A stretch of 7,391 nt of DNA from a virus (taxonomy: Duplodnaviria; Heunggongvirae; Uroviricota; Caudoviricetes). Positions 3,776 to 3,821 of this stretch are shown in pieces; within the stretch, counting starts at the first letter, position 1; each line of letters opens with the position of its first letter. The translations under genes and the position numbers were made by a program. The stretch lies in IMG/VR virus record IMGVR_UViG_2695420724_000001, positions 1-7,391 of that record. One strand, written 5' to 3'. Under the pieces are notes generated by a model that worked only from the letters and a program-made list of their open reading frames with translations, did not search any database and was not told the origin of the DNA.

Positions 3776-3821
3776 TCGCTTTTCAGCGACGTAGGACGAA
3801 TGTCCGTTGTTACAAAGAGCG
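3776..3821 (-). promoter_or_regulatory. nutR-like site: boxA (3821-3807, CGCTCTTTGTAACAA), short hairpin (3805-3794), boxB hairpin (3789-3776, TCGCT-GAAA-AGCGA)
   Basis: Read on the - strand 10 nt after the cro stop. boxA is close to the CGCTCTTTAACAA-type consensus; boxB is a 5-bp stem with a GAAA loop. The same architecture recurs at nutL (6427-6471). Confidence 0.6.

Follow-up and report, generated by a model that had tools for sequence, protein, structure and literature searches.

Probable nutR and nutL in a lambdoid Stx prophage of the VT2-Sakai type: spacer hairpin, GAAA-loop boxB and the type of N

Two elements in the early region of a lambdoid prophage are very likely the nutR and nutL RNA sites of a Stx prophage of the VT2-Sakai type. 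Both have the three-part layout claimed for them by the original prediction, that is, boxA, a short hairpin and, after the tetranucleotide UACG, a boxB with a 5-bp stem and a GAAA loop. The nut sites of this region are already annotated and so already known, and the extra hairpin is the known dyad symmetry of the spacer in nut sites of the H-19B type. Since the sites have been annotated and their architecture has been dissected in H-19B, the present analysis is a confirmation rather than a discovery.

N antitermination at nutL and nutR controls the delayed-early expression of the phage, and expression of Q and of the Shiga toxin genes ultimately depends on it in Stx phages; hence correct annotation of the nut sites matters for models of toxin induction. 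[quoted passage not shown] It provides a clean natural system for the discrimination of GNRA folds by arginine-rich peptides, and it also suits the question of insulation between co-resident Stx prophages.

The locus and the sequences of the two sites

The window, by which we mean the whole analysed stretch of 7,391 nucleotides, covers the immunity genes and early region of a prophage of the lambdoid group, as follows from the list of open reading frames. On the minus strand, it contains cro (3832–4047) and cII (3391–3690), followed by O, P, ren and ninB, and on the plus strand, cI (4116–4817) and N (Table 1). VT2-Sakai and numerous further Stx2 phages from E. coli O157:H7 match it with 99.5–100% identity. 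The nutR site is situated in the cro–cII intergenic region, upstream of the annotated Rho-dependent terminator tR1, putatively the first one to be read through by the N-modified polymerase. The nutL site is about 45 nt downstream of the −10 hexamer of pL and about 100 nt upstream of N.

The GenBank record of VT2-Sakai (AP000422.1) features a "putative N-utilization rightward" and a "leftward" site, which map to positions 3782–3821 and 6426–6466 of the window, respectively. The nut sequences themselves are identical in VT2-Sakai and the window, and the flanks are 99.5–99.6% identical. The annotated features, labelled putative, do not reach the 3′ arm of boxB, ending 5–6 nt before it; otherwise, there is no substantive difference. 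The 14-nt nutR boxB, TCGCTGAAAAGCGA, is annotated as "Putative NutR" in Salmonella phage g341c as well.

Table 1. Features of the early region; positions are those of the window, motifs of the nut sites are given as RNA
Feature	Position	Strand	Remarks
Putative Rho-dependent tR1	3721–3746	−	AP000422.1 annotation mapped to the window; inverted repeat UAUGCG...CGCAUA
nutR boxB	3776–3789	−	UCGCU-GAAA-AGCGA; GNRA tetraloop on a 5-bp stem closed by U-A; the N ARM is predicted to bind here
nutR UACG	3790–3793	−	Tetranucleotide linking the spacer hairpin to boxB, single-stranded
nutR spacer hairpin	3794–3805	−	GGAC-AUUC-GUCC ("reducer" dyad symmetry); predicted fold; same as the H-19B nutR spacer
nutR boxA	3807–3821	−	CGCUCUUUGUAACAA; 8-nt core CGCUCUUU at 3814–3821; rrn-like, with a UUU run; inside the rightward feature of AP000422.1
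pL promoter	6352–6380	+	TTGACC-17-TACTAT; promoter scan; "putative major leftward promoter" of AP000422.1; transcribes nutL and N
nutL boxA	6427–6439	+	GCUCUUUAAACAA; matches the rrn/P22-type consensus GCUCUUUAACAA plus one extra A
nutL spacer hairpin	6441–6453	+	GUCGA-CUC-UCGAC; predicted fold
nutL UACG	6454–6457	+	Tetranucleotide 5′ of boxB
nutL boxB	6458–6471	+	UGGCU-GAAA-AGCCA
N gene	6570–6842	+	90 aa; ARM at residues ~13–25, SRRRARRANLQSQ; C-terminus CLPNVALYAAGYHKSKQLTAR common to the N proteins of P22 and H-19B

Read on the minus strand from 3821 to 3776, nutR is CGCTCTTTGTAACAA-C-GGAC-ATTC-GTCC-TACG-TCGCT-GAAA-AGCGA. The motifs had been predicted base for base, with a trivial omission of the single C at 3806. 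The nutL site (plus strand, 6427–6471) is GCTCTTTAAACAA-C-GTCGA-CTC-TCGAC-TACG-TGGCT-GAAA-AGCCA. Here the predicted motifs stand, but the hairpin, described as GTCG-N5-CGAC, is better represented, given its fold, as a 5-bp stem with a 3-nt loop. The compensatory change ascribed to the boxB stem is real: at the second pair, C-G of nutR is replaced by G-C of nutL, so that both bases differ and pairing is kept.

The boxA sequences, CGCUCUUUG in nutR and GGCUCUUUA in nutL, agree with the consensus (C/U)GCUCUUU(A) and are located 5′ of boxB. The nutR spacer hairpin together with UACG, GGACAUUCGUCCUACG, is the same as in H-19B nutR. The 18-nt degenerate core TACGTNGCTGAAAAGCNA has exactly two matches in the window, at 3776–3793 (minus strand) and 6454–6471 (plus strand), with 0.01 matches expected by chance, and none of 200 dinucleotide shuffles reaches two. 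At the level of sequence, all expectations for real nut sites are borne out, namely those concerning position, boxA, boxB and the cognate N.

A scan of the whole window with Rfam covariance models (E ≤ 1) yielded no family at either nut site. Two sub-threshold matches inside the O gene were rejected as spurious. In the same gene, at 2936–3018 (plus strand), there are inverted and direct repeats of the GAGGGAT/ATCCCTC type, the source of a spurious sub-threshold match to a snoRNA; these repeats are probably the ori iterons of a lambda-type O gene.

Immediately upstream of nutR boxA, the perfect palindrome CCGCTTA-A-TAAGCGG (3825–3839) overlaps the cro stop codon. It is scored as terminator-like on the antisense strand and is confined to this cro allele, other cro modules being joined at this very point and lacking it.

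Folding, spacer length and conservation of the nut sites

The RNA segment that begins with the spacer hairpin and ends with boxB is predicted to form the two proposed hairpins and no other structure, with the energy of −11.1 kcal/mol for nutR and −11.2 kcal/mol for nutL (z = −2.7 and −3.1, respectively). The spacer was expected to be longer than that of lambda, and indeed, counted from the last base of the 8-nt boxA core up to boxB, it is 24 nt at both sites versus 9 nt (nutR) and 8 nt (nutL) in lambda. In a P22-type phage, the spacer is 11 nt (nutR) and 12 nt (nutL). When the hairpin is subtracted, the spacers of the window are reduced to 12 and 11 nt, respectively. For H-19B, a "reducer" stem-loop bringing the flanking sites together is said to have been proposed, and the hairpin-subtracted spacers measured here, being of the P22 length, agree with the prediction of that model.

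If boxA is included, the minimum free energy (MFE) structures are different, −13.5 kcal/mol for nutR and −14.1 kcal/mol for nutL: boxA is paired with the loop and the 3′ arm of boxB, and boxB is not formed. The reason is that at both sites boxA, (C/G)GCUCUUU, can pair with AAAAGC(G/C), which spans the loop and the 3′ arm of boxB; hence the equilibrium MFE structure of the whole site is an alternative helix abolishing boxB. This could be taken for a riboswitch-like regulator of the nut activity formed by mutually exclusive pairing (boxA GCUCUUU with boxB AAAAGC), the more so as the base preceding GCU in boxA is the same as in the 5′ arm of boxB at both sites (CGCU and GGCU). We consider such regulation very improbable. 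The full-length folds are no better than those of shuffled sequences (z = −0.96 and −1.64), and the MFE structure of the sites of POCJ13, whose N is 84% identical, as well as of H-19B and g341c, is the two-hairpin form. Moreover, several family members have no boxA. Both co-transcriptional folding and binding of NusB/S10 would be expected to favour the local hairpins. The boxA–boxB helix was therefore rejected as a conserved feature, based on the shuffles and the structures from other phages, and treated as incidental.

To the comparison of relatives we turned with a survey of 217 loci encoding relatives of N, collected from IMG/VR, GTDB genomes and GenBank phages, a sample dominated by near-identical prophages, so that locus counts are not independent events. 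In each locus N, nutL and nutR were parsed. The base pairs were counted by explicit parsing of 37 distinct nut variants, since the MAFFT alignment of the nutR variants shifted the gap of the loop into the 3′ arm of the boxB stem. The UACG tetranucleotide served as the anchor of the search, and its presence in 37 out of 37 variants is thus by construction; it occupies the same position beside three unrelated hairpin stems. The 5′ flank of the hairpin, ACAA(C/U), was not part of the search and is nearly invariant, two variants being off by one base.

Covariation across homologous prophages, proposed as a check of the original prediction, supports both hairpins in the 37 distinct variants. Four kinds of outer pair occur in boxB (U-A, G-C, C-G and A-U) and three kinds of second pair (G-C, C-G and A-U), while the three pairs nearest the loop, G-C, C-G and U-A, do not change except for two cases of U·G. 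The spacer hairpin is represented by three unrelated stems at one position, GGAC/GUCC, GUCGA/UCGAC and GAUUC(A)/(U)GAAUC, and its loops differ both in sequence and in length (3–6 nt). The third pair of the nutR hairpin is A-U, G-C, C-G or G·U among relatives. The nutL stem GUCGA/UCGAC is invariant, the loop in relatives being CUC, ACUC, ACAC, AUC, GCAC or ACAU. The dyad symmetry of the spacer is kept as a structure and not as a sequence, as is characteristic of the H-19B type.

Absence of the motifs from phages with the same type of N had been named as grounds for refuting the original prediction, and the survey does not refute it. Both motifs are present in every locus with the Sakai-type N and sufficient upstream DNA, with two exceptions, L052 and L047. 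The former is a remnant of a deleted prophage, where the truncated cro abuts a chromosomal lipocalin-like gene; the latter is considered below. The lambda-like phage records 2G7b and ev207 have the same N, nutL and nutR as the window.

The borders of conserved segments are of a mosaic nature. Different cro modules are joined directly 5′ of nutR boxA. In HK620 (4110–4200), the segment from pL to boxA is nearly identical to that of the window (6385–6436), and after boxA the divergence is complete, covering the spacer, boxB and N, so that the joint is inside the nut site. From these joints, 5′ of boxA in nutR and after boxA in nutL, it follows that boxA behaves like a general-purpose site for host factors, and that the unit inherited as a whole consists of the hairpin, UACG, boxB and N.

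Several other observations were made in the course of the survey. A profile search of genome contigs with the N alignment yielded four loci only. One locus with a 97%-identical Sakai-type N (L089) comes from a 3.5-kb contig in a Segatella copri MAG, and a 40%-identical N fragment (L091) from a Xanthomonas pisi assembly, on a contig of 394 nt; contamination or mis-binning is the probable cause in either case. In Hafnia phage Pocitis76, a tRNA-Gly is annotated at 3449–3528, in the early leftward leader, between the nutL-like boxA region and N. A C·C mismatch closes the G(A/U)CAA loop in two lineages, in nutL of 103203_sal5 (~4380–4400, GCUCC-GUCAA-CGAGC) and in nutR of the P22-type locus L224 (2685–2705, CCGCC-GACAA-CGCGG).

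Two further readings of the motifs should be weighed. That they are a chance likeness, dead relics, or DNA elements such as operators or terminators, rather than nut RNA, has a negligible probability, and we regard this reading as effectively refuted by the core shuffles, co-inheritance and covariation. It could draw on the absence of matches to Rfam families at the nut sites and on the terminator scan, whose sole match near nutL is the palindromic spacer hairpin, listed on the antisense (minus) strand. However, two core matches are found where 0.01 is expected, exactly at the canonical nut positions; the sites are maintained, and passed on along with N, in over 200 loci, counted without regard to their near-identity, and show covariation; and operators are annotated elsewhere in AP000422.1. 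As for terminators, boxB is followed by GUCCCAAG or GAUCACCC, with no U tract on the transcribed strand.

The other reading accepts the sites as nut RNA and assigns a different role to the spacer hairpin, which would be not a passive reducer but a specific recognition element, for instance for the KH/S1 domains of NusA or for Rho loading at tR1, tuning the balance between termination and antitermination. It agrees with the footprints of both Rho and NusA on the region of the H-19B nutR spacer that holds the hairpin, and with the almost invariant sequence of the nutR hairpin across phages of the H-19B, Sakai and g341c types. On the other hand, nutL has two wholly different hairpin sequences in one position, the loops vary freely and the stems change in a compensatory manner, which indicates that selection acts on pairing and not on sequence. 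Deletion of the dyad symmetry in H-19B reportedly has little effect. On balance, a recognition element seems unlikely, and we retain the reducer as the preferred role of the hairpin.

The N protein and the class of boxB loops

The window N matches the Pfam family PF25694 with E = 2e-31 and is thus a "Transcriptional antitermination N peptide". The ARM of lambda, TRRRERRAEKQAQ, gives the best alignment with that of the window, SRRRARRANLQSQ, which has Glu in place of lambda Trp18. The identity between the window N (90 aa) and H-19B N (127 aa) is only about 40%, and the ARM of the latter, SRRRERLKAKALANG, resembles that of P22. A search of PDB with the sequence of the window N gave no match.

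The type of ARM and the boxB loop are inherited together. In loci, which are not independent events, the lambda-like ARM of the Sakai (90-aa) and g341c (120-aa) types is accompanied by a GNRA tetraloop in 124 nutL (123 GAAA and one GCAA) and 117 nutR sites (GAAA), and the H-19B-type ARM by GACAA in 84 nutL and 87 nutR sites. No mixed pairing of ARM and loop was observed at any nut site scored among the 217 loci. The nutL boxB loop of POCJ13 is GCAA, still a GNRA tetraloop. Two comparisons are informative in spite of the near-identical prophages behind these counts. Some nutR contexts are identical except for the C of the loop (GAAA versus GACAA). Between the Salmonella phages g341c and 103203_sal5, the N bodies and the flanks of the nut sites are nearly the same, yet the ARM and both boxB loops differ together.

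In the boxB loops of P22 and H-19B, the third base is reportedly extruded. The GAAA loop is equivalent to either GAAAA of lambda or GACAA of P22 minus the extruded base. The lambda loop is described as a GNRNA pentaloop with the fourth base extruded (PMC12027372, citing Legault 1998).

The chances are about even that N and boxB of the Sakai and g341c types constitute a distinct, apparently uncharacterised RNA-recognition pairing within the N family, formed by a lambda-like ARM without Trp18 and a genuine GNRA tetraloop (GAAA or GCAA) with no extruded base, and that a one-nucleotide indel in nutR (GAAA versus GACAA in the same 40-nt context) switches the site between the two N proteins carried by co-circulating Stx phages, of the Sakai type and of the 933W/H-19B type. 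If this is true, the GAAA/GACAA switch would insulate co-resident Stx prophages from cross-activation, and the extruded base of the loop would be dispensable in the Sakai-type system. In lambda, this base reportedly matters for the recruitment of NusA. The literature searched contained no published experiment with N of the Sakai type or with the corresponding nut sites, and no published account of a boxB class with the GAAA tetraloop; as most subscription journals were outside the search, we do not claim that this class is unreported.

One contig combines the two systems. In L047 (IMGVR_UViG_2531839234_000006, 700–4150), a singleton carrying lambda's own imm region, the N-terminus of lambda cI, cro, nutR (GCCCUGAAAAAGGGC) and cII are joined to nutL and N of the Sakai type. 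A search through 5,426 complete E. coli genomes and 50,697 phage records did not recover this arrangement, and both joints are in segments common to the two phage types (cI and O); hence the contig represents a rare recombinant or else an assembly error. If the contig is real, the Sakai N with its lambda-like ARM would need to use the lambda GAAAA boxB at nutR.

The leader between nutL and the start of N has a structure of its own, a long near-perfect hairpin GGGAUGCAAUGCCGAAGC...GCUUCGAGAUUGCAUCGCC at 6485–6560 (plus strand). The fold of the 171-nt N leader has the energy of −59.1 kcal/mol (z = −3.7). The lambda N leader contains an RNase III-sensitive stem controlling the translation of N, and the hairpin in the window is reminiscent of it. 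Similar stems are visible in the leaders of H-19B, g341c, HK620 and P22-type phages.

Proposed mechanism and comparison with H-19B, lambda and P22

In the proposed mechanism, nutR, transcribed from pR, and nutL, transcribed from pL, would both act as RNA. The boxA element would be an rrn-like site for NusB/S10, and boxB, a 5-bp hairpin with a true GNRA tetraloop, would be bound by the lambda-like ARM of the 90-aa N. The single-stranded ACAAC and UACG flanking the extra hairpin would correspond to the region occupied by NusA, and by Rho, in H-19B nutR. The hairpin itself may serve as a reducer, hiding 12–13 nt, so that the 24-nt spacer would present 11–12 linear nucleotides, the P22-type length. 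The complex of N, Nus factors and RNA would stay tethered to RNA polymerase and carry it through tR1 and the leftward terminators. Binding of N to boxB, the presence of NusA on the spacer, the role of the reducer and antitermination as such are extrapolated here from experiments on H-19B and lambda, and the relatives that suggest the function have an N with only about 40% identity to that of the window.

The nut spacers of H-19B are said to contain dyad symmetries. Mutations in one arm reportedly inactivate the nut site, and compensatory changes are said to restore the activity. The N protein of H-19B is reportedly independent of boxA, NusB and S10. The order of elements, boxA, the hairpin of the spacer dyad symmetry, UACG and boxB, is the same in H-19B and the window. 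The H-19B nutR is CGCUAUUUUCACAAU-GGAC-AUUC-GUCC-UACG-UCGCU-GACAA-AGCGA (GenBank AF034975; antisense oligonucleotides RS662–665 in the supplement of PMC3526286). It coincides with the window nutR in GGACAUUCGUCC-UACG-UCGCU...AGCGA, the spacer being that of oligonucleotide RS663, and differs by one base in the loop. The H-19B nutL has another hairpin at the same place, GAUUC-GAAUAU-GAAUC, followed by UACG and GCGCU-GACAA-AGCGC. Judging by its sensitivity to RNase T1, H-19B nutR contains two hairpins; N with NusA/NusG protects its spacer and boxB and leaves boxA unprotected, and the spacer is bound by Rho as well (PMC3526286). Neely & Friedman 2000 (Mol Microbiol 38:1074, PMID 11123680) is cited for "alternative NUT RNA structures".

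At that, the boxB loop of H-19B is the GACAA pentaloop, and its N has 127 aa with a P22-like ARM, RRRERLKAKALANG, whereas the window has the GAAA tetraloop and lacks the combination of GACAA with the 127-aa N. The window sites are therefore of the H-19B type in their architecture but have another pairing of N and boxB. They also differ in boxA: H-19B nutL has no recognisable boxA, and that of nutR is degenerate (CGCUAUUUU), the nut sites of g341c have none, whereas in the window boxA is close to the consensus at both sites. Hence the dependence on boxA, NusB and S10 may be different from that in H-19B.

The nutR and nutL sites of lambda are at the same positions as those of the window and share with them boxA, the 5-bp boxB with a U-A closing pair and the GNRA-type fold. 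However, the spacer in lambda is unstructured and short (8–9 nt), compared with 24 nt including the hairpin in the window, and the boxB loop is a GAAAA or GAAGA pentaloop with the fourth base extruded, compared with GAAA. The N proteins also fall into different families, PF11438 for lambda N, with Trp18, and PF25694 for the window N, with Glu at this position. The latter family includes the gene 24 protein of P22, and the two proteins have a common C-terminal pattern LP.VALYAAG..K....TAR. Finally, the P22 spacer, 11–12 nt, equals the window spacer minus the hairpin; P22 has the GACAA pentaloop and no spacer hairpin.
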